Shown here one piece after another: positions 8,956 through 28,371 of a DNA stretch of 32,000 nucleotides. Below the pieces are notes generated by a model. It worked only from the letters and a program-made list of their open reading frames with translations, made no database searches and was not told the origin of the DNA. Both the position numbers and the translations under genes were made by a program. Source of the stretch: Geobacter metallireducens GS-15 (GTDB lineage Bacteria > Desulfobacterota > Desulfuromonadia > Geobacterales > Geobacteraceae); NCBI RefSeq assembly GCF_000012925.1, contig NC_007517.1, positions 3,090,001 to 3,122,000 of the forward strand, written 5' to 3'. The number at the start of each line of letters is the position of its first letter. Position 1 is the stretch's first letter.

Positions 8956-10080
8956 ATGCCGGGTGCCATGCACGACGAACCGGACCATCCCGAACTCTCC
9001 ATCACCGTCCCGACCCTGAATGAGGCCGAGGGGCTCGAACGCTTCTTCGCGATGCTCTCCGCCCAGCAGGGGGTCAGGTTTGAGCTGGTGATCGCCGACG
9101 GCGGCTCCACGGACGGGACGCCGGAGAGCGCCCGGAGGCTGGCCGCTGCCACCCCCTTCGCGGCAACGGTCATCGAAACCGGCCGCGGACGTGGACGGCA
9201 GATGAATGCCGGCGCCGCGGCTGCCGCGGGCGACACCCTTCTCTTTCTCCACGCCGACTGCGCCTTCCCCGATCCCCTGGCCCTGCGGACCGCCCTGGAT
9301 GCCTTCACGCAGACGGTTGCCGCCGGGGGAAGCCACCGGGTGGCCGGGCACTTCCGGCTCCGCTTCGAGCGCACAGATTCCGCCCCTTCCCTCCCCTACT
9401 ATTTCTACGAGTGGAAGGCCCGGCTCCACCGGCCCGGATGCACCCACGGCGACCAGGGGCTCCTCCTCGGGCGGCGCTTTTTTGCCGAGGCAGGCCCCTT
9501 CGACGAGTCGTTCCCGATCCTGGAGGACGTGGGGCTGGCAGAGCGGATCGCGGCCCTGGGGGAGTGGCTGCTCCTGCCGGCAGAGATTGTCACCTCGGCC
9601 CGCCGCTTCGAGGCGGAGGGATTGCGGGAGCGCCAGACCCTGAACGCCCTCCTCATGAACTTCGCGGCCATGGGCTGGGATCCGTTCCTGGCGGAACTGC
9701 CACGCCTCTACCAGAGCCAGGACCGGGCCGGACGCCTCCTCCTCGGTCCGGTACTCCGCCTCATCGCCAGGTTGCTCCGCCCCCTTCCCCGCCGGGAGCG
9801 CGGGAGGCTCTGGCGCGAGACCGGGCGTTACGTGCGGGCCAACGCCTGGCAGATTCCCTTTTTCCTCGACGTGCGGCGCCACTTCCGGCAGGGGACGCCC
9901 GTGGGCGAAGGAGAGACGCCGCGCCTCGATCTCCACGACCGCATCTTCGACCGGCTCACCGAAAACGGGGCCGGCCATCGGGCAACGGCGCTCCTGGTCT
10001 GGATCTGGTTCCGGCTGTCGCTCCTCCGGGAGCCCCTTACACCACCAGCCGCGCGAAATCCGGAAGGGAACGGATCGTGA
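8956..10080 (+). CDS. Family 2 glycosyltransferase with a C-terminal extension
   Basis: LSITVPTLNEAEGLERFF...FELVIADGGSTDGT...GRGRQMNAGA...LLFLHADC is typical of GT2. The ORF-track start at 8758 overlaps cheV and the terminator, so I chose the ATG at 8956 (alternative 8968). Confidence 0.8.
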   Translation: MPGAMHDEPDHPELSITVPTLNEAEGLERFFAMLSAQQGVRFELVIADGGSTDGTPESARRLAAATPFAATVIETGRGRGRQMNAGAAAAAGDTLLFLHADCAFPDPLALRTALDAFTQTVAAGGSHRVAGHFRLRFERTDSAPSLPYYFYEWKARLHRPGCTHGDQGLLLGRRFFAEAGPFDESFPILEDVGLAERIAALGEWLLLPAEIVTSARRFEAEGLRERQTLNALLMNFAAMGWDPFLAELPRLYQSQDRAGRLLLGPVLRLIARLLRPLPRRERGRLWRETGRYVRANAWQIPFFLDVRRHFRQGTPVGEGETPRLDLHDRIFDRLTENGAGHRATALLVWIWFRLSLLREPLTPPAARNPEGNGS

Positions 10081-10909
10081 CCGGGCCGTGGCAGATGAAG
10101 TCACCATCCACCTGCACCGCCTTGTTGCCGCCGATGGTCACGGTATCGGCATCGAAGACCGTGACCCCCGCACCGGCGGCCCCGCGCCCGGCAGCCACCC
10201 TCAGGGCGAGCCGGAGGTAATCGCGCCGCCTCCCCGCCTCGACGCAGACCACCCGGAAGCGGGGCTCGAAGAGGCTTGCGCCGGGGGCCAGGACGAAGCT
10301 CCCGCCGTAGCGGGCCGCATTGCAGACGATGACGCTGTGGCAGGAGCGGCGCGCCCCCGCCGCTTCCACCTCCATGGGCCTCCCATCCCAGGCGGAGAGG
10401 GTCCGAAGGGCCGAGAGGAGGTAGGCCCCCTTGCCGAAGCGCTTTTTCTCCTCGCCAAGCACCCCCTCCACCACGAAGCCGTCGAACCCGGCGCCGGCCA
10501 TGAGAAAGAAGCGGCGACTGACGCCGAACCCTTCCAGGAGCCCCACCGACAGGGGGCGGGCCTCCCGCCGGATGATCCGGCGCACCGCCTCGTCCACGGA
10601 GCCGATCCCCAGCTCCCGGGCACAGACATTGGCGGTGCCCAGGGGGAGGAAGGCCAGGGTCGCCCTGCCCGGCACGAGGCCGTTGATGACGCCGTTCATG
10701 GTTCCATCCCCCCCGCCCGCCACGATAAAGGGATGATCCTCCTCCGCGCAGGCCCGGGCGGCAAAGGCGGCGGCATCGTCGGGACCGCCGGTGAGGAGCA
10801 CTGAGGGGGAGAAGCCGGCTGCGGCCAGGCGAGCCGTCACCCGGTCGACCAGTGACGCGGAATAGCTCCCCGACGTGGGATTGATGATGAGGGTGCAGGA
10901 ACGGGGCAC
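10037..10909 (-). CDS. Diacylglycerol kinase-family lipid kinase (YegS/BmrU-like)
   Basis: LIINPTSGS..., GGDGTMNGVINGL and LPLGTANVCAREL are DAGK catalytic-domain motifs. Confidence 0.85.
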   Translation of the reverse strand: MPRSCTLIINPTSGSYSASLVDRVTARLAAAGFSPSVLLTGGPDDAAAFAARACAEEDHPFIVAGGGDGTMNGVINGLVPGRATLAFLPLGTANVCARELGIGSVDEAVRRIIRREARPLSVGLLEGFGVSRRFFLMAGAGFDGFVVEGVLGEEKKRFGKGAYLLSALRTLSAWDGRPMEVEAAGARRSCHSVIVCNAARYGGSFVLAPGASLFEPRFRVVCVEAGRRRDYLRLALRVAAGRGAAGAGVTVFDADTVTIGGNKAVQVDGDFICHGPVTIRSLPDFARLVV

Positions 10910-11064
10910 GAAACAACTCCTTGTGAAATGGCATGTGGCGGCAGTATAGCACCCCCCTCGGGAGAGGGACCACGATTTTGATGGACGGCCGTGTCAACCG
11001 GCATTGCCGATGGGGCGTTTTCGATACTATACGAGTAACCCATCAAACAAAAGGAGGTACTGAG

Positions 11065-19069: not shown

Positions 19070-19643
19070 TGAAACCCTCCAGCGCCTTCCTGACGGCATC
19101 GGCCAGGCGATCAGGCGCAACCGCCTTAACCTCCACCGGCAATCCGACGTAACACCCTATCTCCGCAAGGGTTTCCGCAGGCACCGGCACCACTCCCGTA
19201 TCGAGATAGAAGATGCGGCGATGCATCTCCTGCATGAAGAGCCGCGCGCTTTCAGGGGTAACGAAACCAAGCCGCTCCCGGAATACCTCCCGCCAGCGCG
19301 CGGTCCATTCGGGAAGCAGGAAAAAGGCCCCTTCTCTCCGCAACCGCCGGTATTCCTCCCTCCCCAGCACCAGCTCGCAGCAGTTGTGCCCCTTCACCCG
19401 GCAGGCCCCCTCGCGGGACGCAAGCAGGTCCATCCGGGCTTGGCAGTCGCCGAAGAGCAGCACGATGCGCTGTCCGGCGAGGGATTGAACAAGGGCCGTC
19501 AGGGCCTGCTCCAGACGCTCCGGCTCCATGTGGAGCATGGAATCCAGAAACCTCACGGGCCAGGGGAATTTCCCCGCCCGCCCGAGGGCCGCCAGCTCAT
19601 CACGGAAGATGCCGCAGCTGACGACCAGCACATCGGCCGGCAT
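19062..19643 (-). CDS. DUF1638 domain protein
   Basis: VLVVSCGIFRDEL...LDSMLHM.PE.L...LLFGDC...NCCELVLG matches the pattern I associate with DUF1638, which is commonly next to corrinoid methyltransferase genes. The ATG at 19643 has a GAGGGG SD; the track start at 19658 is a GTG. Confidence 0.7.
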   Translation of the reverse strand: MPADVLVVSCGIFRDELAALGRAGKFPWPVRFLDSMLHMEPERLEQALTALVQSLAGQRIVLLFGDCQARMDLLASREGACRVKGHNCCELVLGREEYRRLRREGAFFLLPEWTARWREVFRERLGFVTPESARLFMQEMHRRIFYLDTGVVPVPAETLAEIGCYVGLPVEVKAVAPDRLADAVRKALEGFNE

Positions 19644-19654
19644 GGTTTCGCCCC

Positions 19655-20677
19655 TCACCGCCCGCCTCCGTGCCCCTCGACCGCGGCCCGCACGGCAAGC
19701 AACGTTTCCAGCGGCGTATCGAGGGGAACGTCCGCGGATGACGACGCCAGGACAAAGTGGGGGTCATCCCGGCGGTCGGCAAGGATCGCGGCGGCCCTCG
19801 CCCCTGCCTGTTCCGGGGTAAGCCGGTTCAGGACCGGCCCGTTCAGGTTGCCGAGGATCAGCTTCTCCTCTCCCACGATGGAGCGGGCCGCGGCGAAGCT
19901 GTCGCCGGGGCCGATGACGAACCCCGCCACATTGGGAAGATCCTTCACAAGCGGCAAGAACGGCATGGCCGGGTTGCCCCCGTGATGGAGGATGATGGGG
20001 ATGGGGGTTCGGGCGAAGGCCTGCGCCAGCGGCGGGACGATGGAACGGGAAATGACCTCGGGAGTAACGAGCGTCGGATTTGCCAGCATGAGGGGAATGG
20101 CGATGCAGGCGGCACCTGCCGCGGCCAGTGCCCCGGCCATGGCGGCAAAGTGCTCCGTGGCGGCTGCCAGCACCGTTTCCGCCAGCGCCGGCTCGAAGAG
20201 GAGTGTTTCAAGCCATCCGTCGAGCCCCATGAGCATGGCCGGCAGATCCACCGGCGCGGTGAGGACCCCGGCCAGGGGAACGCTCCCGCAAAAATGGTCC
20301 GCCAGCCGCCGGACGCTCTCGCAAAGGTAGGCAAGGCCGGGACAGGTATCAATGGCGGGAGGGGACAGGGATGCGGCGTCGCGGGGCGCGCGGAAAGGAT
20401 GCCTGCGGACCATGGGGGGACCGTCGGGATGGTAGCGAAGTTCGGCGCCGTATGCCTCGGCCTCCAGGGCCAGGGCGAAGGGTGCGAAGATGATGTCGGG
20501 GGAAACGAGCTCGGCAACCCGCACCTGCCCTTGGGCGTAGAGGGCCGGATCGGCATAGTAGCTGGCCAGGGGGGCGTTGATCAACCGGGCGCCGTAGAGG
20601 CTCAGGGTCAGGGCAAAAGGTGGCCGGTCAGGCTTTTCTCCGGTGAAGACGGCCATGACCCTCTCGGCGGCGGTCAT
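19655..20677 (-). CDS. Uroporphyrinogen-decarboxylase-superfamily protein, MtaA/MT2-like, lacking the Zn-ligand cysteines
   Basis: A 340-aa product starts at MTAAERVMAVFTGEKPDRPPF. The ATG at 20677-20675 overlaps the corrinoid gene's TGA (ATGA). The track's 511-aa version over-extends into the upstream gene. ILHHGGN sits where MT2 enzymes have H-x-C. Confidence 0.75.
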   Translation of the reverse strand: MTAAERVMAVFTGEKPDRPPFALTLSLYGARLINAPLASYYADPALYAQGQVRVAELVSPDIIFAPFALALEAEAYGAELRYHPDGPPMVRRHPFRAPRDAASLSPPAIDTCPGLAYLCESVRRLADHFCGSVPLAGVLTAPVDLPAMLMGLDGWLETLLFEPALAETVLAAATEHFAAMAGALAAAGAACIAIPLMLANPTLVTPEVISRSIVPPLAQAFARTPIPIILHHGGNPAMPFLPLVKDLPNVAGFVIGPGDSFAAARSIVGEEKLILGNLNGPVLNRLTPEQAGARAAAILADRRDDPHFVLASSSADVPLDTPLETLLAVRAAVEGHGGGR

Positions 20678-21384
20678 TGCTCCCCCCCGGCGTCCAGCGA
20701 GCGTTCCCAGAGGGATTTGAAGAGAACAGGCGCATCCATGGCGCTGCCGGCCGTGCCGTCTCCCCCCACCTCCGCCACCAGCTCGGGACGGACCTTGAAA
20801 ACGGCCCCCCCCACCGCAAGCATGATCCTGCCGGAGAGTCCCCGTCGGTCGAGCTCGTCGCGCACCCCGCGGATTCCCCGGGCAGTGACGAACATCATGG
20901 CCGAAACCCCGATAACCCGCGCGCCCGTTTCCACGGCCCGGTCGACGAATTCGGCGGGGCTCACGTCGTTTCCCATGTCGATCACGGCCCATCCGGCTGC
21001 CCGGAGGAAGGTGCCGACCATGCCGCGGCCAAGGGAATGGTAATCGTCCTCGATGTTGCCGATCACCACCGGCCCCTTGACCTCGCCGAACACCCCCTTC
21101 GGGGCGGCGGCCAGGGCCTTGTTCAGGATATCCTCGGCCACCTTCCCGGCCACAAAGCCCTGGGCCAGGGAGATAGCCTCCCGCTCCCACCGGTCGCCCA
21201 CCGTCCGAAGAACCGGCTCAAGGATCTCCGCAATGGCGTCCCCATAGCCGTGAACGGCCGCCCACTGGTCCACGAGACGGCTTGCCCCGTCCCGGTCGGC
21301 ATCGTTGATACGCCGCAACACTTCAGCGACAAGCTTCTGAAGCGTCGTCCCCTCTCCGGTCATATCAGGCATCGGCGCCGCCAT
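20674..21384 (-). CDS. Corrinoid (cobalamin B12-binding domain) protein, MtaC/MtbC-like
   Basis: An N-terminal helical cap domain is followed by a Rossmann-like domain. The B12-binding signature is GNIEDDYHSLGRGMV (DxHxxG), then VIGVSAM and GG. The start could be the ATG at 21384 or 21399. I prefer 21384 given the sigma54 promoter geometry and a GGGGTGA SD. Confidence 0.8.
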   Translation of the reverse strand: MAAPMPDMTGEGTTLQKLVAEVLRRINDADRDGASRLVDQWAAVHGYGDAIAEILEPVLRTVGDRWEREAISLAQGFVAGKVAEDILNKALAAAPKGVFGEVKGPVVIGNIEDDYHSLGRGMVGTFLRAAGWAVIDMGNDVSPAEFVDRAVETGARVIGVSAMMFVTARGIRGVRDELDRRGLSGRIMLAVGGAVFKVRPELVAEVGGDGTAGSAMDAPVLFKSLWERSLDAGGEQ

Positions 21385-21417
21385 GTTCACCCCGTTCATC
21401 GTGGACTACACTAAGCG

Positions 21418-22754: not shown

Positions 22755-23741
22755 TCAGTATTTCTGACTCATTACGTCCCGAACCGCTGCGGCGATGGTC
22801 TCCACCTGCGGGATGCAGAGCTTCTCGATCTTGCGCGAGTAAGGCATGGGGACGTCGAGCCCCGACACCCGCCGCACCGGCGCCAGGAGCCGGTCGAAGC
22901 ACTCCTCGGCGATGATGGAGGCCAGGTGCCCCCCGAGGCCGGCGGCGCGCCAGCACTCCTCCACCACCACGGCCCGGCCGGTCTTCTGCACCGAGGCAAC
23001 AAAGGTCTCCGTGTCCAGGGGCGCCAGGGTCCGCAGGTCCACCACCTCGCAGGAGCTCCCCTCCTTCTCCAGTTCCGCCGCCGCCTGCAGCGCCAGGATG
23101 GTCATGCGCGAATAGGCGACGATGGTCACATCCTTCCCCTCCCGCTTCACCTCGGCCTTCCCCAGGGGGACCAGGAACTCCGGGTCGTCGGGCACCTCCC
23201 CCTTGCTGTTGTAGAGGAGCTCGTGCTCCAGGAACATCACCGGGTTGTTGTCGCGGATGGAGGCCTTCAGGAGCCCCCGGGCGTCGGCAGGCGTCGCCGG
23301 CACCGCCACATGGATGCCGGGGCAGTGCATGAAGTAGGTTTCCAGGCTCTGGGAGTGCTGGGCCCCCAGCTGGCTCCCACCGCCCCCCGGGGCGCGGACC
23401 ACCATGGGGAGATGGGTCTGCCCCCCGAACATGGAGCTGATCTTGGCCATGTGGTTCACGATCTGGTCCATGGCCAGGAGGGCGAAGTTCACCGTCATCA
23501 GTTCCGCCACGGGCCTCAAGCCACCCATGGCCGCCCCGATGGAGACGCCGATGATGGTGTTCTCGGAGATGGGGGTATCCTTCACCCGCTCCTCGCCGAA
23601 CTCGGCCAGAAGCCCCCGGGTCACCTTGAAGGAGCCCTCGTACAGGGCCACGTCCTCCCCCCAGGCAACCACGGACGGGTCGCGCCGCATCTCTTCTTTC
23701 AGGGCCTTGTTCAGGGCATCGCGGTAGGTCATTTCATGCAT
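22755..23741 (-). CDS. 2-oxoacid (pyruvate/acetoin-type) dehydrogenase E1 beta subunit
   Basis: MTYRDALNKALKEEM...V...GEDV..Y.G.FKVT.GL...FG..RV.DTPISE is the typical transketolase-like E1-beta pattern. An AAGGAGG SD precedes the downstream E2. Confidence 0.95.
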   Translation of the reverse strand: MHEMTYRDALNKALKEEMRRDPSVVAWGEDVALYEGSFKVTRGLLAEFGEERVKDTPISENTIIGVSIGAAMGGLRPVAELMTVNFALLAMDQIVNHMAKISSMFGGQTHLPMVVRAPGGGGSQLGAQHSQSLETYFMHCPGIHVAVPATPADARGLLKASIRDNNPVMFLEHELLYNSKGEVPDDPEFLVPLGKAEVKREGKDVTIVAYSRMTILALQAAAELEKEGSSCEVVDLRTLAPLDTETFVASVQKTGRAVVVEECWRAAGLGGHLASIIAEECFDRLLAPVRRVSGLDVPMPYSRKIEKLCIPQVETIAAAVRDVMSQKY

Positions 23742-23773
23742 GGGAAACCTCCGTTACTATAACGGCTGAGAGC

Positions 23774-23792
23774 ACAGCGGGTTCACCGCTGT
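23774..23792. repeat. Hairpin ACAGCGG-gttca-CCGCTGT at the E1-beta-proximal edge of the low-GC cassette
   Basis: A 7-bp stem with a 5-nt loop, read directly. It shares the core AGCGG(G)TTCAC with the palindrome at 24735-24768. Confidence 0.6.
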
Positions 23793-23836
23793 TGCGCTTG
23801 GTTGAATAGTATTCTGCACCTCATCCTGTTCTGCTA

Positions 23837-24328
23837 CTAATCCATAGAAATGAGTTTCAAAGTTCTCTCCGGCAAAGATTTCTGTCTATTTCCCTCTATA
23901 AGCTCTTCAGTGATTGTTAGCATAAGTTGTGTAAACTTGTTCTGACTTATAAGTTTGTCACGAGTATCAGGGCTGTGCCAAGCCTGCTTTAACAACTCTG
24001 TTGCATGATGGTGAATCATAAGTGCTATTGGTTTTGACATGGATGGGAATTGTTCTAATATTTTAGATTTTGTTTCATCAATACTTTGCAAGAACTCGCT
24101 GAACTGTTTTGTTTTGTGTTGCTCTTCTATTTGTACCCGTACTTTATGCTCTTCAAACCTTGTCTGTAATTCCTCTATTTCATGACGCAATTTCACATCA
24201 GCTAAATCTTTGTCTCTCTTGAGCTTGTTCAAGTCGTCATTGTGTTTTTTTTGCCATTCCAGCGATTCACTCTTGATTGTTTCAAGTAAACCCGCTACGA
24301 AACTTCCGAGATCTTGACCTGCTGACAT
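23837..24328 (-). CDS. Hypothetical soluble coiled-coil protein (163 aa), low-GC cassette gene 2
   Basis: ORF with an AGGAGG SD (aggaggtaagtcATG), 3 nt after gene 1's stop. Lys/Glu-rich heptad-like sequence. I recognise no domain. Confidence 0.7.
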   Translation of the reverse strand: MSAGQDLGSFVAGLLETIKSESLEWQKKHNDDLNKLKRDKDLADVKLRHEIEELQTRFEEHKVRVQIEEQHKTKQFSEFLQSIDETKSKILEQFPSMSKPIALMIHHHATELLKQAWHSPDTRDKLISQNKFTQLMLTITEELIEGNRQKSLPERTLKLISMD

Positions 24329-24331
24329 GAC

Positions 24332-24703
24332 TTACCTCCTAAATTTATTTAGATTCTCATATACGTTCTTAACATTCGAATTTAGTAACACATTGTAAAG
24401 GGAATACAATTTTTGCGCTTTCACTTCATCTACGTATGACTGTACTAAGTTCTCCAAGTCATCAAAAAAGCGCGGAGGAATATCCCTCTGGAATTTGTAC
24501 AATAAAGGCTTAACATATGAGGCTAGTTCATTCATGTTAGCCCGTTGTATCTCTGTTACCTTACCGTCACGTCTATCTTCTTCACGTGATGCGCACTCTT
24601 GGCTGAATTTTTCAAATTTTTGTTTTTGACGTTCCAAGCGAGTCTCTTTCATATAATACCAAACCGCCCAGATGATAATTCCTAAGATGACAATCTCTAA
24701 CAT
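24332..24703 (-). CDS. Hypothetical single-pass membrane protein (123 aa), low-GC cassette gene 1
   Basis: The N-terminal TM helix MLEIVILGIIIWAVWYYM is followed by KETRLERQKQK (positive-inside) and a charged helical cytoplasmic domain. GGAGA SD. I recognise no domain. Confidence 0.7.
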   Translation of the reverse strand: MLEIVILGIIIWAVWYYMKETRLERQKQKFEKFSQECASREEDRRDGKVTEIQRANMNELASYVKPLLYKFQRDIPPRFFDDLENLVQSYVDEVKAQKLYSLYNVLLNSNVKNVYENLNKFRR

Positions 24704-24734
24704 TTCTGTTCATTCTCCAGTTCAACTCGTGATT

Positions 24735-24768
24735 GAGCGGTTCACGCGCGCACGCGCGTGAACCGCTC
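24735..24768. repeat. Perfect 16+16 bp GC-rich palindrome at the distal edge of the low-GC cassette
   Basis: GAGCGGTTCACGCGCG-CA-CGCGCGTGAACCGCTC. There is no adjacent T-tract on either strand. Confidence 0.85.
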
Positions 24769-24789
24769 ATCCTCCCGAATGGAACATTT

Positions 24790-25074
24790 CTACCTGCTCA
24801 TCCCCCACAGCCGAACAAGCATGTCTGTTTTTCGTGAGCCCACACCGTGCCATAGCGAAACAAGTCCGATGTACTCTTCAGTCACTTCGTAGATGATGCA
24901 GTATTTCACCGGGCCGGAATCGACATACAACTCTTTCAGCACCACCTGTTGGCCGGCAAGCAGATAGGGCGCATCGACACCGGCAAAGTTGTTTGCGCAG
25001 AGGAGCTTTTTCCAGCGAACGCTTAAGCGGACGTTTTGCCATTCCGCAGCTCTCTTCTTAAAGTATCGAAGAAT
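24790..25074 (-). pseudogene. ParE/RelE-family toxin-like ORF with no canonical start codon
   Basis: The open frame runs from TGA-TGA-ATT to TAG. It translates as ILRYFKKRAAEWQNVRLSVRWKKLLCANNFAGVDAPYLLAGQQVVLKELYVDSGPVKYCIIYEVTEEYIGLVSLWHGVGSRKTDML... The tail has a ParE-like hydrophobic-strand...H-G...R pattern. No ATG, GTG or TTG occurs before residue ~44. It overlaps the antitoxin 3' end by 52 nt. Confidence 0.45.
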
Positions 25075-25298
25075 TCATCATTTTCCGAAACGACCGTGCC
25101 CAACCCGGAACGAAGTTCGTACCAGCCCCGCTCAACCAAATCGAAGAACTCCTTCTGCTCATCGGCGTGCCGCACGTACATACGCAACGAGTCCCGGAGC
25201 ACGTCCTGCTCGTTGCGTCCTTCCCGTTGAGCAATCCGCTTCAGGTTCATGCTGTCGGTTTCATCAAGCCTGAGCCCCATTTGTCTGCTGCTTCCCAT
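25023..25298 (-). CDS. Ribbon-helix-helix antitoxin, ParD-like
   Basis: The RHH region is MGLRLDETDSMNLKRIAQREGRNEQDVLRDSLRMYV. The C-terminal helical region (ERGWYELRSG...FFDTLRRELR) resembles ParD-type antitoxins. I chose the ATG at 25298, which has a GAAGGTG SD; the track start is 25340. Confidence 0.65.
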   Translation of the reverse strand: MGSSRQMGLRLDETDSMNLKRIAQREGRNEQDVLRDSLRMYVRHADEQKEFFDLVERGWYELRSGLGTVVSENDEFFDTLRRELRNGKTSA

Positions 25299-25336
25299 AC
25301 ATTTCACCTTCCCGGTATCATTAATACCGATACACA

Positions 25337-25780
25337 TCACCGCATACCAGCCGACAAGATATCTATCTCCACTATCCAGAGGGCCAACGTCGGACGATAG
25401 TCAACCGTATGTCGCTGTTTCGCTGTTCGACAGGACAGAGCTAATCGGCGCGAAGTCTTTTTTCCGCGACCGGTCGAGCGCGTTGTCAGGCATGTCTCCC
25501 ATGTTTCGTGGATAGCTTCACGTACCACATCCGTCAGCCTCAATCCTTGAGCAAACTGTCTCAAAGCGTCGTTCATCAGCGTTTGATAGTTACCGCCGAT
25601 TATTTCAGCCCGAGCTTTGAATGTTGCCAGGACGTCGTTGTCAACACGCATCGTTATGCGGGATTTGCCGCCGGTCTCGGCCTGAAATTTCGCCAGGACA
25701 GGCGTTTCACTGACCGGTTCTGCGTCTGTAAAATCAAGGTCTTTGTATTTGTCGTACATTTTGTCAGAACTGACTTTCAT
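25337..25780 (-). CDS. BrnA-type (CopG/RHH) antitoxin with an atypically long C-terminal tail
   Basis: DLDFTDAEPV...PVLAKFQAETGGKSRITMRVDNDVLATFKARAEIIGGNYQTLMNDALRQF is the characteristic BrnA pattern. The ORF then runs ~55 aa further (147 aa in total). Confidence 0.7.
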   Translation of the reverse strand: MKVSSDKMYDKYKDLDFTDAEPVSETPVLAKFQAETGGKSRITMRVDNDVLATFKARAEIIGGNYQTLMNDALRQFAQGLRLTDVVREAIHETWETCLTTRSTGRGKKTSRRLALSCRTAKQRHTVDYRPTLALWIVEIDILSAGMR

Positions 25781-25847
25781 AGCGTCTCCGTTGCGGCTCG
25801 TTGGCCTTCCAGGCTGAGATCAGCCGTATCGTTTCCTCTCTATGACT
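25764..25847 (-). pseudogene. BrnT (DUF497) toxin C-terminal stub
   Basis: The frame reads SHREETIRLISAWKANEPQRRRYESQF*. This matches the BrnT C-terminal pattern ...IR(I/L)ISAR.A...ER..Y. The stop overlaps the brnA start by 17 nt, as in intact brnTA pairs. The upstream ~65 aa of a normal BrnT is absent, because the 168-aa gene ends at 25850. Confidence 0.5.
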
Positions 25848-25849
25848 GT

Positions 25850-26356
25850 TCAGATCTTGCGGCTGTCGTAAGCCCAGTGCAACAATGCCTGGCGCTGTTT
25901 TCTCCGGCAATCCAGGTCTCCCGGAACACAATTCAACCTCAACTGCGCACTATGCCTTCTCATGGCTTTCCACCGGCCGATCTGCCGGGCATCATCCGCA
26001 CATCTCCGCCCCATGAAGTAGCGGCAATACCACTGGAACCACCCCCGGGGGTCTTCGTGATAGATCCACCCCCTGGCCCGCCAGTAGGACAACGGCTTGG
26101 AGGCGTTGACGCCGAAATGGTTCAATTCAGGAACGTGGCGTTCGTGACAGAGCTTGGCATTGGTAAACCACTCTTCAGGAAACTCGTCGATACAGTCTGT
26201 CATGTACTTCCCGCCGAAAACGCCCAGCTCAAGCATCTCCCTTGGCGTCAGTTCGGGCTTGAATTCCGGATGGAAATTCATGCCCACCGGTTCTGACAGC
26301 GTATAGATGTAGTTCCTCTGCATGAGGTCGTCCACGACAACGTATATTTGATCCAT
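25850..26356 (-). CDS. Conserved-looking hypothetical protein (168 aa), family not recognised
   Basis: The ORF has distinctive Trp/Arg-rich motifs (DPRGWFQWYCRYFMGRRCADDARQIGRW). It starts at the ATG at 26356; the track's GTG at 26383 overlaps the upstream stop. Confidence 0.65.
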   Translation of the reverse strand: MDQIYVVVDDLMQRNYIYTLSEPVGMNFHPEFKPELTPREMLELGVFGGKYMTDCIDEFPEEWFTNAKLCHERHVPELNHFGVNASKPLSYWRARGWIYHEDPRGWFQWYCRYFMGRRCADDARQIGRWKAMRRHSAQLRLNCVPGDLDCRRKQRQALLHWAYDSRKI

Positions 26357-26379
26357 GGTCAGTCTCTTTCTGCCACAGT

Positions 26380-27351
26380 TCACACATGGTTGCGCAGCAT
26401 CAGCTCGGCCGGATGAGGCGACAGGTAGTACTGCTGCTGCAGGTAGCTCTGACCGTACTTGCCGACGTAATGCTTCAACAGGGTAAGCGGAACAATGAGG
26501 GGGACCAGCCGGTCGTGATATTCCTTGATGACCCCGAGTAGTTCTTCCTTTTCAGCAGGGCTCAGATCCCGCTTGAAATAGCCCATGATATGCGTCAGCA
26601 CGTTGGTGTTCTTCTTGACCGTGGCATGCAGGGCAAGGGCCTTCATGAAGAGCGCTTCGTAGCTTTGGGCCAGCTCGGGCCAAGACATCCCTTTGCCGTG
26701 CGCCACCAGGCTTCCCATTTCCCGGTAGATGCTGGTGCTGTGGGCCAGGATGAGCAGCTTGTGACGGGCATGGAAAGTCACCAGGTGGCCCAGGTCGGGA
26801 CTGTCCAGCAGGAAATCCTTCCAGCGGCGGTAGCAGAAGATCCGCTCGATGAAATTTTCCCGGATGGCCGCGTCATTGAGCCTCCCCTCTTCCTCTGCCG
26901 GAAGAAGAGGGAAATGCTTGACCACTGCTGCGGCAAACAGGCCGCTGCCGCTCCTGGTCGGCATCCCCTCGTTGTGAACCTTGACCCGAAACAGGCCTGA
27001 ACTGGGGGAATCTTTCTTGAAGATGAAACCGCACAACTCTTCATCCGCCAATTCCGTAACCTTTTGCTTACAGAAGGCGCGCATCTGTTCGGTCTTGTCG
27101 ATGCGGGTCTTGTTCGTCACGAGCCGGGGGTGCTCGGGGTCTCCCTCAAGGCGCATTGCCTCGCGAGGGACCGGCATGCCGCAGCCGACCTCCGGGCAGA
27201 CCGGCACGAAGGTGAAGAACTTGCCCAGTACGTCGGTTATGTAGTGATCGTGCTTGTGGCCGCCGTCATAGCGCACCTTCTCTCCCAGGAGGCAGGAACT
27301 GACGCCAACCTTTATCGGTCTGTTCCAGTTGACCGCCTCAGGCATAAACAT
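26380..27351 (-). CDS. DUF523 (TudS-like 2-thiouracil desulfurase family) fused to DUF1722 (YbgA-like)
   Basis: The N-terminus VGVSSCLLGEKVRYDGGHK...PVCPEVGCGMPVPRE...SPSSG is the DUF523 Cys pattern. The C-terminal half (FHARHKLLILAHS...Y..LG...) is YbgA-like. The ATG at 27351 or 27345 overlaps the E1-alpha stop by 14 or 8 nt. Confidence 0.8.
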   Translation of the reverse strand: MFMPEAVNWNRPIKVGVSSCLLGEKVRYDGGHKHDHYITDVLGKFFTFVPVCPEVGCGMPVPREAMRLEGDPEHPRLVTNKTRIDKTEQMRAFCKQKVTELADEELCGFIFKKDSPSSGLFRVKVHNEGMPTRSGSGLFAAAVVKHFPLLPAEEEGRLNDAAIRENFIERIFCYRRWKDFLLDSPDLGHLVTFHARHKLLILAHSTSIYREMGSLVAHGKGMSWPELAQSYEALFMKALALHATVKKNTNVLTHIMGYFKRDLSPAEKEELLGVIKEYHDRLVPLIVPLTLLKHYVGKYGQSYLQQQYYLSPHPAELMLRNHV

Positions 27352-28315
27352 CTTCCCACACCTCACTATCCTCGGGCCACGGCGAATCCTCGGCAAACTT
27401 CACCGCATCGGCCACCGTCACCAGGGCCTGCTGTTTGATCCCCTCCAGCTGGGCCTCGGTGGCTATCTCTTCCTCCACCAGCCGGTTCGCGAAGGCCGGG
27501 ATGGGGTCGCGGCTCTTCCACAGCTCCACCTCGGCAAGGCTGCGGTATTTGCCCGGATCGGACATGGAGTGCCCCCGGAACCGGTAGGTGATCGCCTCGA
27601 TGAGGAAGGGGCGGTTCTGCTCCCGCACCCACTCGGCCGCCCATTTGACCGCCTCGTACACCGCGATCACGTCCATGCCGTGAACCCGCTCCGACGGGAT
27701 GTCGTAGCCGCAGGTCCGCCGGTGGATGTCAGGGAGTGCCGATGCCCTCTCCACGGAGGTGCCGATGCCGTAACTGTTGTTCTCGCAGATGAAGAGGACC
27801 GGCAGTTCCCAGAGCCGGGCCCAGTTGAGTGATTCGTGGAACGTTCCCTGGTTCGCGGCGCCGTCGCCGAAGAAACAGGCGACGATCCGTCCCTCCTTCC
27901 GGAATTTGGCGGCAAAGGCGAGCCCCACGGCGATGGGGAACTGGCCGCCGACAATGGCGTATCCCCCCATGAAGGAGAGATTCGGGTCGAAGAGGTGCAT
28001 GGAGCCCCCCTTCCCCTTGCAGATGCCGGTCCGCTTGCCGAAGAGCTCGGCCATGACCCGCCGCGGCTCGGCCCCCCGGACGATGGCCTGGGCGTGTTCC
28101 CGGTAGGCGGAGAGGATGTAGTCGTCCCGGTGGAGGCCGGCGGTGGCCCCCACGGCCACGGCCTCCTGGCCGCTGTAGAGGTGGAGGAAGCCGGTGATGT
28201 GCCCCTTGGTGTACTGTTCGGCGCACGACTCCTCGAACTCGCGGGAAAGGACCATCTGTTCGTACATCCTGATAAGTTCGGCGTCGGGGAGAAGGGCGCG
28301 GAGTTTCGATTCCAT
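27338..28315 (-). CDS. 2-oxoacid (pyruvate/acetoin-type) dehydrogenase E1 alpha subunit (TPP-binding)
   Basis: MESKLRALLPDAELIRMYEQMVLSREFEE...GFLHLYSGQEAV...GGSMH...GDGA.NQG...E.LN.A.LW.LPV.F.CENN.Y is the E1-alpha TPP motif pattern. The ATG at 28315 has a GAGG SD. Confidence 0.95.
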   Translation of the reverse strand: MESKLRALLPDAELIRMYEQMVLSREFEESCAEQYTKGHITGFLHLYSGQEAVAVGATAGLHRDDYILSAYREHAQAIVRGAEPRRVMAELFGKRTGICKGKGGSMHLFDPNLSFMGGYAIVGGQFPIAVGLAFAAKFRKEGRIVACFFGDGAANQGTFHESLNWARLWELPVLFICENNSYGIGTSVERASALPDIHRRTCGYDIPSERVHGMDVIAVYEAVKWAAEWVREQNRPFLIEAITYRFRGHSMSDPGKYRSLAEVELWKSRDPIPAFANRLVEEEIATEAQLEGIKQQALVTVADAVKFAEDSPWPEDSEVWEDVYA

Positions 28316-28331
28316 GGGGACCTCGCTATCC

Positions 28332-28350
28332 GGGCGGGTAGTGCCCGCCC
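28332..28350 (-). other. GC hairpin between the truncated kinase gene and E1-alpha
   Basis: GGGCGGG-nnnnn-CCCGCCC is a 7-bp stem. No U-tract follows on the minus strand, so terminator function is uncertain. Confidence 0.4.
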
Positions 28351-28371
28351 TTGGGGGCAAACTCGGTGAGT

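Follow-up and report, generated by a model that had tools for sequence, protein, structure and literature searches.

What are two small, GC-poor genes doing inside a GC-rich operon for a 2-oxoacid dehydrogenase, and do they act together? The question is raised by a 32,000-nucleotide stretch of the Geobacter metallireducens GS-15 genome (NC_007517.1, forward-strand positions 3,090,001 to 3,122,000; this whole stretch is hereafter the window), in which two minus-strand open reading frames (ORFs) follow closely on one another: gene 1, at 24332..24703 (123 aa; 100% identity to Gmet_2755), and gene 2, at 23837..24328 (163 aa; UniProt Q39S02 / ABB32972.1 by accession match), the latter also present in G. 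metallireducens strain RCH3. A previous inspection of the letters alone, the sequence-only reading, had taken them for a foreign cassette of membrane anchor plus coiled-coil protein, conceivably a membrane-disrupting abortive infection (Abi) or addiction pair. The answer developed here is that the pair is a conserved module, judged by comparison of its genes, and that a membrane-tethered sensor or adaptor accounts for the evidence better than does a toxin or a phage-defence module; that the two proteins are subunits of one membrane-tethered helical complex with such a role, and the locus a recently imported copy, is proposed with slightly more doubt than confidence.

The two reading frames and their close spacing, recognised at that first inspection, were confirmed exactly. 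Their junction (24329..24346, minus strand) comprises an AGGAGG within the last codons of gene 1 and 8 nt 5′ of the gene 2 ATG, the gene 1 TAA ending at 24332, a gap of 3 nt and the gene 2 ATG at 24328, which by its layout is a translational-coupling arrangement. Each gene had been credited with its own Shine-Dalgarno (SD) sequence; for gene 2 this stands, but the start of gene 1 is preceded only by a weak GGAG, 11 nt upstream. The GC content of the pair is 0.374 versus 0.636 in the remaining window, of whose 32 kb it is the lowest-GC kilobase, and GC at third codon positions (GC3) is 0.40 and 0.37 for genes 1 and 2, compared with 0.92 for E1-beta, 0.87 for E1-alpha and 0.86 for E2, a contrast with host genes at about 0.9 that upholds the earlier suggestion of foreign origin.

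Might such ORFs be no more than chance frames, or decaying genes, in AT-rich imported DNA? They are without annotation, no expression data were found for them in the literature and the toxin-antitoxin (TA) genes nearby look degraded, all of which would be in keeping with lack of function. However, against the closest copy (L119, 85% identical) the ratio of nonsynonymous to synonymous substitution rates (dN/dS) comes to 0.06 in gene 2 and 0.09 in gene 1, with dS at ~1.1-1.25, so that both genes are real, under purifying selection, and not artefacts of AT-rich DNA. Further, mean column identity in the close gene 2 family is 71% (22 homologs), and the frames are intact with their pairing conserved in over 100 loci. 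As far as sequence can tell, absence of function is hard to credit.

Do the two genes belong together? Gene 2 has 32 homologs in an index of 5.8 billion proteins and 73 representatives in an exhaustive profile search of 1.84 billion representative proteins; a single-sequence search with gene 1 gave one relative and a four-sequence profile gave 23. At the first 29 loci fetched the genes are adjacent, co-oriented and constant in order without exception (29/29). A set of 122 loci, drawn from genomes and metagenomes and including the window itself, was scanned with a narrower alignment, the broad one being too diverse, and 104 of the 122 have a same-strand upstream ORF ending at most 45 nt before the gene 2 start, while those of the others that were inspected are fusion proteins or contig-edge cases. 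Co-occurrence of homolog pairs, the sequence-only reading's own proposed test, is thereby borne out. Stop and start are −4 to +5 nt apart in 93 of the 104 homologous pairs, and the pairwise distances of the two proteins are closely correlated (r=0.95 over 88 unique pairs), with the partner evolving faster; this co-divergence points to joint inheritance, with no swapping of partners. At the level of gene sequence the pair is thus established as a conserved, translationally coupled and co-inherited module, and its family, as seen in these searches, is rare, strictly paired and so far undescribed.

What kind of protein does each gene encode? The initial description of gene 1, as an N-terminal transmembrane (TM) helix followed by a helical cytoplasmic domain, agrees with hydropathy, charge and an AlphaFold2 (AF2) model, the topology being a predicted one. 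Residues 1-17 are hydrophobic (Kyte-Doolittle 1.99) and are followed by a juxtamembrane stretch of charge +3, on account of which the C-terminus is predicted to be cytoplasmic. In the model (predicted local distance difference test, pLDDT, 86) a helix runs from residue 2 to 70 and leads into a compact end of three short helices. The predicted parts are therefore an N-terminal signal-anchor TM helix (~2-18) that would hold the protein in the inner membrane, a long stalk helix in the cytoplasm and, also on the cytoplasmic side, a small C-terminal domain of three helices. The family alignment has R22, R25, Q53, R54, N56, E59, A61, L68, P77, L99, F121 and R123 as invariant residues and, after the anchor, the motifs T-R-L-E-R, Q-R-x-N-I/M-x-E-L-A, a Pro (PP/TP), L-Y-x-L and a C-terminal F...R. 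What precedes them is far less constant: Geobacter-type and Solidesulfovibrio proteins have one bare TM helix, the partner in the Methylobacter clade has 2-3 TM helices, and that of locus L121 has a signal peptide, a Cys-rich ectodomain and one TM helix, and then a clearly gene-1-like cytoplasmic domain. Across clades, to judge from these alignments, the cytoplasmic domain of gene 1 is conserved and the membrane or extracytoplasmic part is variable. On a low-GC contig (L120:95-792) a partner with a TM helix and an ELARLV motif is split over two frames, which points to a frameshifted pseudogene or else to an error in the assembly.

Gene 2 encodes a soluble protein with 33% charged residues, for which the AF2 model (pLDDT 79) is all-alpha, with a long helix from residue 3 to 96 and three short C-terminal helices. 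Its motifs F-x-E-F-L-x-S-I-D, P-I-A-L-M-I-H-H-H-A-x-E-L-L-K-x-A-W and L-P-E-K-T correspond in the close family to the invariant blocks F-x-E-F-L-x-x-I-D, P-x-x-L-M-I-H-H-H-A-x-E-L-L-x-x-A-W and L-P-E-x-T; the wider family retains only I105, W117, P153 and the LPxKTL tail. The HHH patch that had drawn attention at the outset is present in gene 2 (MIHHHATELL) and in its close relatives, but not family-wide. A metal site of three histidines was considered and rejected as a family feature, since in the wider family the position is taken by IHQY, IHNQ, VHDY and further variants. The notion that gene 1 and gene 2 are paralogs was likewise dropped (hhalign E=0.19).

Pointers to what the gene 2 domain does come from proteins in which it is fused to something else. 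Among the 73 representatives, it follows an N-terminal TIR domain in P0089, which matches the family profile over its full length (E=1.3e-20), and in P0122; it precedes C-terminal HEAT repeats in P0088 and P0093, and a C-terminal glycine-zipper/TM tail in P0101; and in a single protein, P0109, it probably follows an N-terminal helix-turn-helix (HTH), Pfam HTH_3 being below cut-off. The TIR, HEAT and HTH fusions whose contexts were read have no upstream TM partner. Because of these partnerless fusions the domain is read, from its architectures, as behaving like an interaction or oligomerisation domain of the adaptor or sensor type, and not as a catalytic one. In P0089 the region of residues ~170-250, between the TIR and gene 2 domains, has a faint TRADD-like_N match (E=0.017), at most a hint, from the profile match, of a link to adaptor systems of Death/TRADD type. 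A cyanobacterial-looking contig (L114) carries a HEAT-fused gene 2 relative, then a second HEAT-repeat gene and, 3 kb from the fused relative, a TIR+GUN4 fusion protein (9898-11007, minus strand).

How might the two proteins work as one? The cytoplasmic domain of gene 1 would hold gene 2 docked, in fixed stoichiometry, on the cytoplasmic side of the inner membrane, the complex would serve as an envelope-associated sensor or adaptor, and a membrane or periplasmic cue received through gene 1 might change the oligomeric state of gene 2 or cause its release. We infer that the pair is neither an enzyme nor a classical TA pair. Several points weigh against this proposal. The AF2 model of gene 2 has a low predicted template modelling score (pTM), 0.35; the Methylobacter partner is collinear with the gene 1 family, yet the match is weak (hhalign E=0.0017, probability 16%); no conserved third gene or neighbour common to the clades indicates a pathway; the sensor or adaptor role is one that we infer from architecture together with fewer than 10 fusion proteins; and the proximity to TA genes of two mobile copies, along with the TIR fusions, is equally compatible with a role in a conflict system.

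Is any of this familiar under another name? Scans of both proteins against Pfam, NCBIfam, PADLOC and PHROGs gave sub-threshold noise only, and 49 diverse relatives of gene 2, scanned with Pfam, had no family in common. The best match in PADLOC-DB v2.0 was that of gene 1 to Csx1 (E=0.0031, 14.5 bits), with none for gene 2, so that support for defence from this source, which had been suggested as a check, is lacking, neither protein matching above noise. In profile searches of PDB sequences with both proteins no match was better than E=0.09, and Foldseek gave nothing below E=0.2 for gene 2 against PDB and BFVD or for gene 1 against PDB; for gene 2 against PDB there was no match below E=1, and matches to SigR were above E=3. 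No toxin or antitoxin family matched either protein in Pfam, NCBIfam or PADLOC, Pfam found no DNA-binding domain (HTH, ribbon-helix-helix (RHH) or AbrB) in either window protein, and homologs of phage lysis or structural proteins (holin- or spanin-like) were not found, with only noise from PHROGs and nothing from tblastn against phages, viral contigs or Foldseek against BFVD. Rfam has no family anywhere in the window, and the literature searched has no mention of Gmet_2753 to Gmet_2756, their tag prefixes, homolog tags or accessions. The claim that neither protein has a recognisable domain survives all these searches, and the homology to a housekeeping or prophage structural family that its proponent had listed as speaking against the cassette idea did not turn up in the family, PHROGs or fold searches. 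By sequence, fold and tested features no known family or system fits, and the pair is on these comparisons new at the level of protein family and module, which is not to imply a new mechanism.

Where does the pair reside? It is present in at least four lineages: Geobacter, Solidesulfovibrio, Methylobacter and cyanobacteria-like contigs. In Solidesulfovibrio and related Desulfovibrionaceae its GC is near that of the host. In the same clade it is downstream of PeptU32-6PF2K/HisPhos in 14/23 loci, and the genes downstream of it, including an old yellow enzyme (OYE) flavin oxidoreductase and an iron-containing alcohol dehydrogenase (Fe-ADH), are kept in 9 to 12 of the 23, shared flanks that argue for vertical inheritance with local indels; two metagenome-assembled genomes (MAGs) of the clade have a second copy. 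In Methylobacter the pair is between genes for hopanoid biosynthesis, MlaC/MlaA and a phosphoribosyltransferase and, on the other side, proS (contigs up to 375 kb), with flanks common to 11-15 of 20 long loci. Genomes of both genera mostly have a single copy, and its locus is conserved.

Such residency, with the neighbouring hopanoid and MlaC/MlaA genes of Methylobacter and the long-helix, coiled-coil character of both proteins, is also what would be expected of a structural membrane scaffold, cytoskeleton-like or concerned with envelope or lipid homeostasis and devoid of any signalling role. Against it, no neighbour is shared between clades, there is no likeness to PspA/ESCRT-III, DivIVA, flotillin or other scaffold folds, and signalling is the better fit for the partner's variable ectodomain and for the TIR and HTH-like fusions of gene 2. 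We consider a purely structural role doubtful, and decidedly so.

A different picture is given by the low-GC clade, made up of the window, L119, L004-6, L007 and L033-36, in which the GC of the pair is 0.33-0.43 regardless of flank and the flanks are unrelated between loci. By blastn the window and L119 are homologous in nucleotide sequence only as far as the gene 2 stop, so that the spacer from there to the E1-beta start (23742..23836, minus strand) is taken as the downstream edge of the imported unit. A motif scan for the close family in 185,579 species genomes found no other Geobacter species with the pair, an absence that speaks for recent import of a bare two-gene unit. Within this clade the pair, to judge from its flanks, moves as a bare two-gene unit, and for the G. 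metallireducens copy composition and homology boundary establish, at the level of sequence, horizontal transfer of such a unit from a low-GC donor. One member, L007, is on a 4.9-kb, 32% GC contig (WJKD01000453.1) of a ‘Candidatus Lokiarchaeota’ MAG (GCA_014729315.1), where it is beside a Por_Secre_tail gene; as that neighbour belongs to type IX secretion sorting, the contig is probably a bacterial one that was mis-binned into an archaeal MAG. The distribution as a whole suggests that in most lineages the pair behaves as a resident cellular function, and in the low-GC clade as a mobile accessory one.

This mobile clade, crossing between unrelated hosts, lends some substance to the thought of an Abi or other defence module, in which, by analogy with TM-effector defence systems, gene 1 would act in the membrane as effector or sensor and gene 2 would trigger or regulate it from the cytosol, with infection leading to oligomerisation and then to membrane damage or a signal. 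Unrelated TA genes adjoin the pair in the window and in L004, the distribution over phyla is patchy, TIR is fused to the gene 2 domain in two distant relatives with a further TIR protein close to a third, HEAT-fused one, and a few neighbours are PADLOC-positive among the 24 diverse loci considered below. However, beyond the failure of every PADLOC model to rise above noise, the two largest clades are in syntenic housekeeping neighbourhoods, the pair was found neither on plasmids nor in 50,697 phage records (tblastn), nor in viral contigs, both proteins are highly conserved with a low dN/dS and have no signature of an enzyme or a pore-former, and a single 17-residue TM helix with a cytoplasmic domain of ~100 residues is unlike small membrane toxins. 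A defence module of this kind we regard as unlikely, albeit worth keeping in mind. Much the same standing is given to a bolder variant, likewise unlikely, in which an undescribed conflict system for membrane surveillance has the pair at its core: perturbation of the envelope, for instance when a phage adsorbs or injects, would be sensed by the variable membrane part or ectodomain of gene 1, the gene 2 domain would serve as an oligomerising trigger, wired directly to TIR NADase effectors in cyanobacteria-like lineages, and the target of standalone pairs would be the membrane or something else in the host.

Does the company the pair keeps resemble a defence island? The 131 neighbours pooled from 24 diverse loci are by Pfam mostly housekeeping and signalling genes, and include response regulators, methyl-accepting chemotaxis proteins (MCPs), RluB/ScpB, YrdC, RNR, Pta and NadE. 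PADLOC picks out among them one Cas12f/TnpB-like protein, one REase_III (type III restriction) and weak PD-T4-6, mad and SduA matches, which are raw counts with no background rate. A defence-island setting, which the sequence-only reading had thought typical of such places, does not hold in general: the two largest clades, with their syntenic housekeeping flanks, clearly lack one, and the pooled neighbours do not display such a habit. A Peptidase M50 (site-2 protease) gene is 1-2 kb from the pair in 4/24 loci (L004:1242-2321, L039:6058-6714, L069:3199-3858 and L070:5947-6597) and is of two unrelated subfamilies; it would be of interest were gene 1 a cleavable membrane tether, but the proximity may be coincidence, and no link is drawn from it.

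Could the pair instead hold on to its host by addiction? One protein would be toxic, for instance gene 1 by depolarising the membrane, the other would neutralise it, and an island that splits an operon would be stabilised. The two genes are small and tightly coupled, they are beside a BrnA antitoxin gene and TA-like fragments, and the foreign DNA is intact in both sequenced G. metallireducens strains. However, the lack of homology to toxin or antitoxin families and of a DNA-binding domain in either protein, the conserved and mostly single-copy locus that the pair has in Solidesulfovibrio and Methylobacter, its absence from the plasmids searched, and a gene 2 domain that does without its partner in the fusions examined, which would be unexpected for an obligate antidote or toxin, combine to make this improbable. 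That the pair travels with one particular TA module was considered and set aside: the RelB/ParE of L004 is unlike the neighbours in the window.

Those neighbours are part of a 3.6-kb mosaic island (23742-27337), co-oriented with and lying between E1-alpha (27338-28360) and E1-beta (22755-23741) of the 2-oxoacid dehydrogenase operon. GC3 in the island is graded, from 0.77 for DUF523/DUF1722 through 0.71 for a 177-aa ORF, 0.63 for the RHH-like ORF and 0.54 for BrnA to the 0.37-0.40 of the pair, a gradation of composition that suggests several successive insertions. BrnA itself (25337-25780) is verified (Pfam E=8e-14) and has a C-terminal extension of ~70 aa, whereas a ParE-like ORF (an open frame with no canonical start), the RHH-like ORF and a BrnT-like C-terminal fragment (24790-25340, 25740-25931) have no support from hidden Markov models (HMMs); of the two TA-module remnants previously perceived here it is the BrnA part that stands. 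The 177-aa ORF (25850-26383, minus strand), for which Pfam, NCBIfam, PADLOC and PHROGs gave no match, adds a second uncharacterised gene to the island.

The cassette had also been thought to be bracketed by palindromes, and this is half right. Upstream there is a perfect GC-rich palindrome of 17+17 nt (24734..24769; arms TGAGCGGTTCACGCGCG/CGCGCGTGAACCGCTCA), unique in the window, with an RNA fold of −43.6 kcal/mol (z=-5.1) and no U-tract, which separates the cassette from the ParE-like ORF at 31 nt 5′ of the start of gene 1, where it forms the upstream edge of the low-GC block; from its sequence it could be a terminator or attenuator without U-tract, an operator or a recombination scar. Downstream, in the spacer, the hairpin is weak and no better than shuffled sequence (z=-0.63), with no U-run and no terminator call. 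As there is thus no convincing terminator after gene 2, E1-beta and E2 probably depend, so far as the layout indicates, on read-through or on an island promoter. A second copy of a palindrome arm was not found near the downstream edge, and flanking direct repeats or att-like sites were limited to direct repeats at chance level. Downstream of E2, at 19221-21399 (minus strand), there are genes with the Pfam labels of a corrinoid protein (B12-binding), a URO-D-family methyltransferase-like protein and DUF1638, which from these labels looks like a corrinoid-dependent methyltransferase cluster.

For G. metallireducens the point is a smaller one, recent foreign DNA in a mosaic island by which an operon for a 2-oxoacid dehydrogenase is interrupted. 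The wider attraction of the pair is that of a clean new two-protein family whose proposed architecture, a conserved docking domain, a variable membrane sensor and a soluble helical partner, makes it experimentally tractable. If it is a signalling or defence module it would embody a new principle of membrane-tethered sensing; should it prove a housekeeping scaffold, a conserved unknown of sulfate reducers and methanotrophs would gain an annotation. The TIR link is intriguing, and a conserved unknown is tidy and not in itself a surprise.

How, then, does the pair compare with systems that are already known? Each of those considered has testable defining features that the pair fails to display, and for that reason it is taken as a member of none of them, though its resemblances to several are instructive. 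Anti-sigma/sigma pairs, such as RseA-RpoE and RsgI-SigI, are membrane-anchored regulator pairs; here too there is a single-pass protein whose conserved cytoplasmic domain would hold a soluble partner while the extracytoplasmic part varies by lineage, and the genes are tightly coupled and, as predicted from their layout, co-transcribed. Unlike a sigma factor, gene 2 has neither sigma-70 regions 2/4 nor a DNA-binding domain, save for the probable HTH fusion of one relative, and no anti-sigma family matches in Pfam or NCBIfam. LiaI-LiaH and PspB/C-PspA are membrane-stress modules that likewise join a small membrane anchor to a soluble, highly helical coiled-coil protein, for which recruitment to the inner membrane is proposed in the present case as well. 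However, no PspA_IM30/ESCRT-III match was obtained (Pfam, PDB profiles, Foldseek), and the AF2 model of gene 2 is one long helix versus the ESCRT-III hairpin.

Type II TA systems share with the pair two small co-oriented genes that abut or overlap, mobility in one clade and nearness to other TA genes. The likeness ends with the want of a toxin or antitoxin family and of a DNA-binding antitoxin, with plasmids and phages that are without copies, and with a pair that is syntenic and mostly single-copy in two genera, only the low-GC clade being mobile. Among defence systems with a TM component are Kiwa (KwaA/KwaB), the TM effectors of CBASS and Pycsar, and Rst_2TM_1TM_TIR. The combination of a membrane protein and a cytosolic partner, the TIR link through gene 2 fusions and a mobile clade beside TA genes are all reminiscent of these, but for the pair there is no PADLOC match and no cyclase, nuclease or other enzyme, and large clades are in housekeeping synteny.

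There remain the effector-associated adaptor domains (EADs) of nucleoside triphosphate (NTP)-dependent conflict systems, for which homotypic or heterotypic docking has been proposed (Kaur et al., eLife 2020, PMC7159879). No domain described in that paper fits, and no EAD, Death-like or TRADD-N match in Pfam passes threshold among 49 family members, the faint TRADD-like_N match of P0089 being outside the gene 2 domain. Further, the neighbourhoods are without a STAND, vWA or MoxR NTPase, and the obligate partner is a small membrane protein. What the gene 2 domain does have in common with EADs is that, all-alpha, it is to be met with both standing alone and fused to effectors such as TIR, and this in cyanobacteria-like low-GC contigs.

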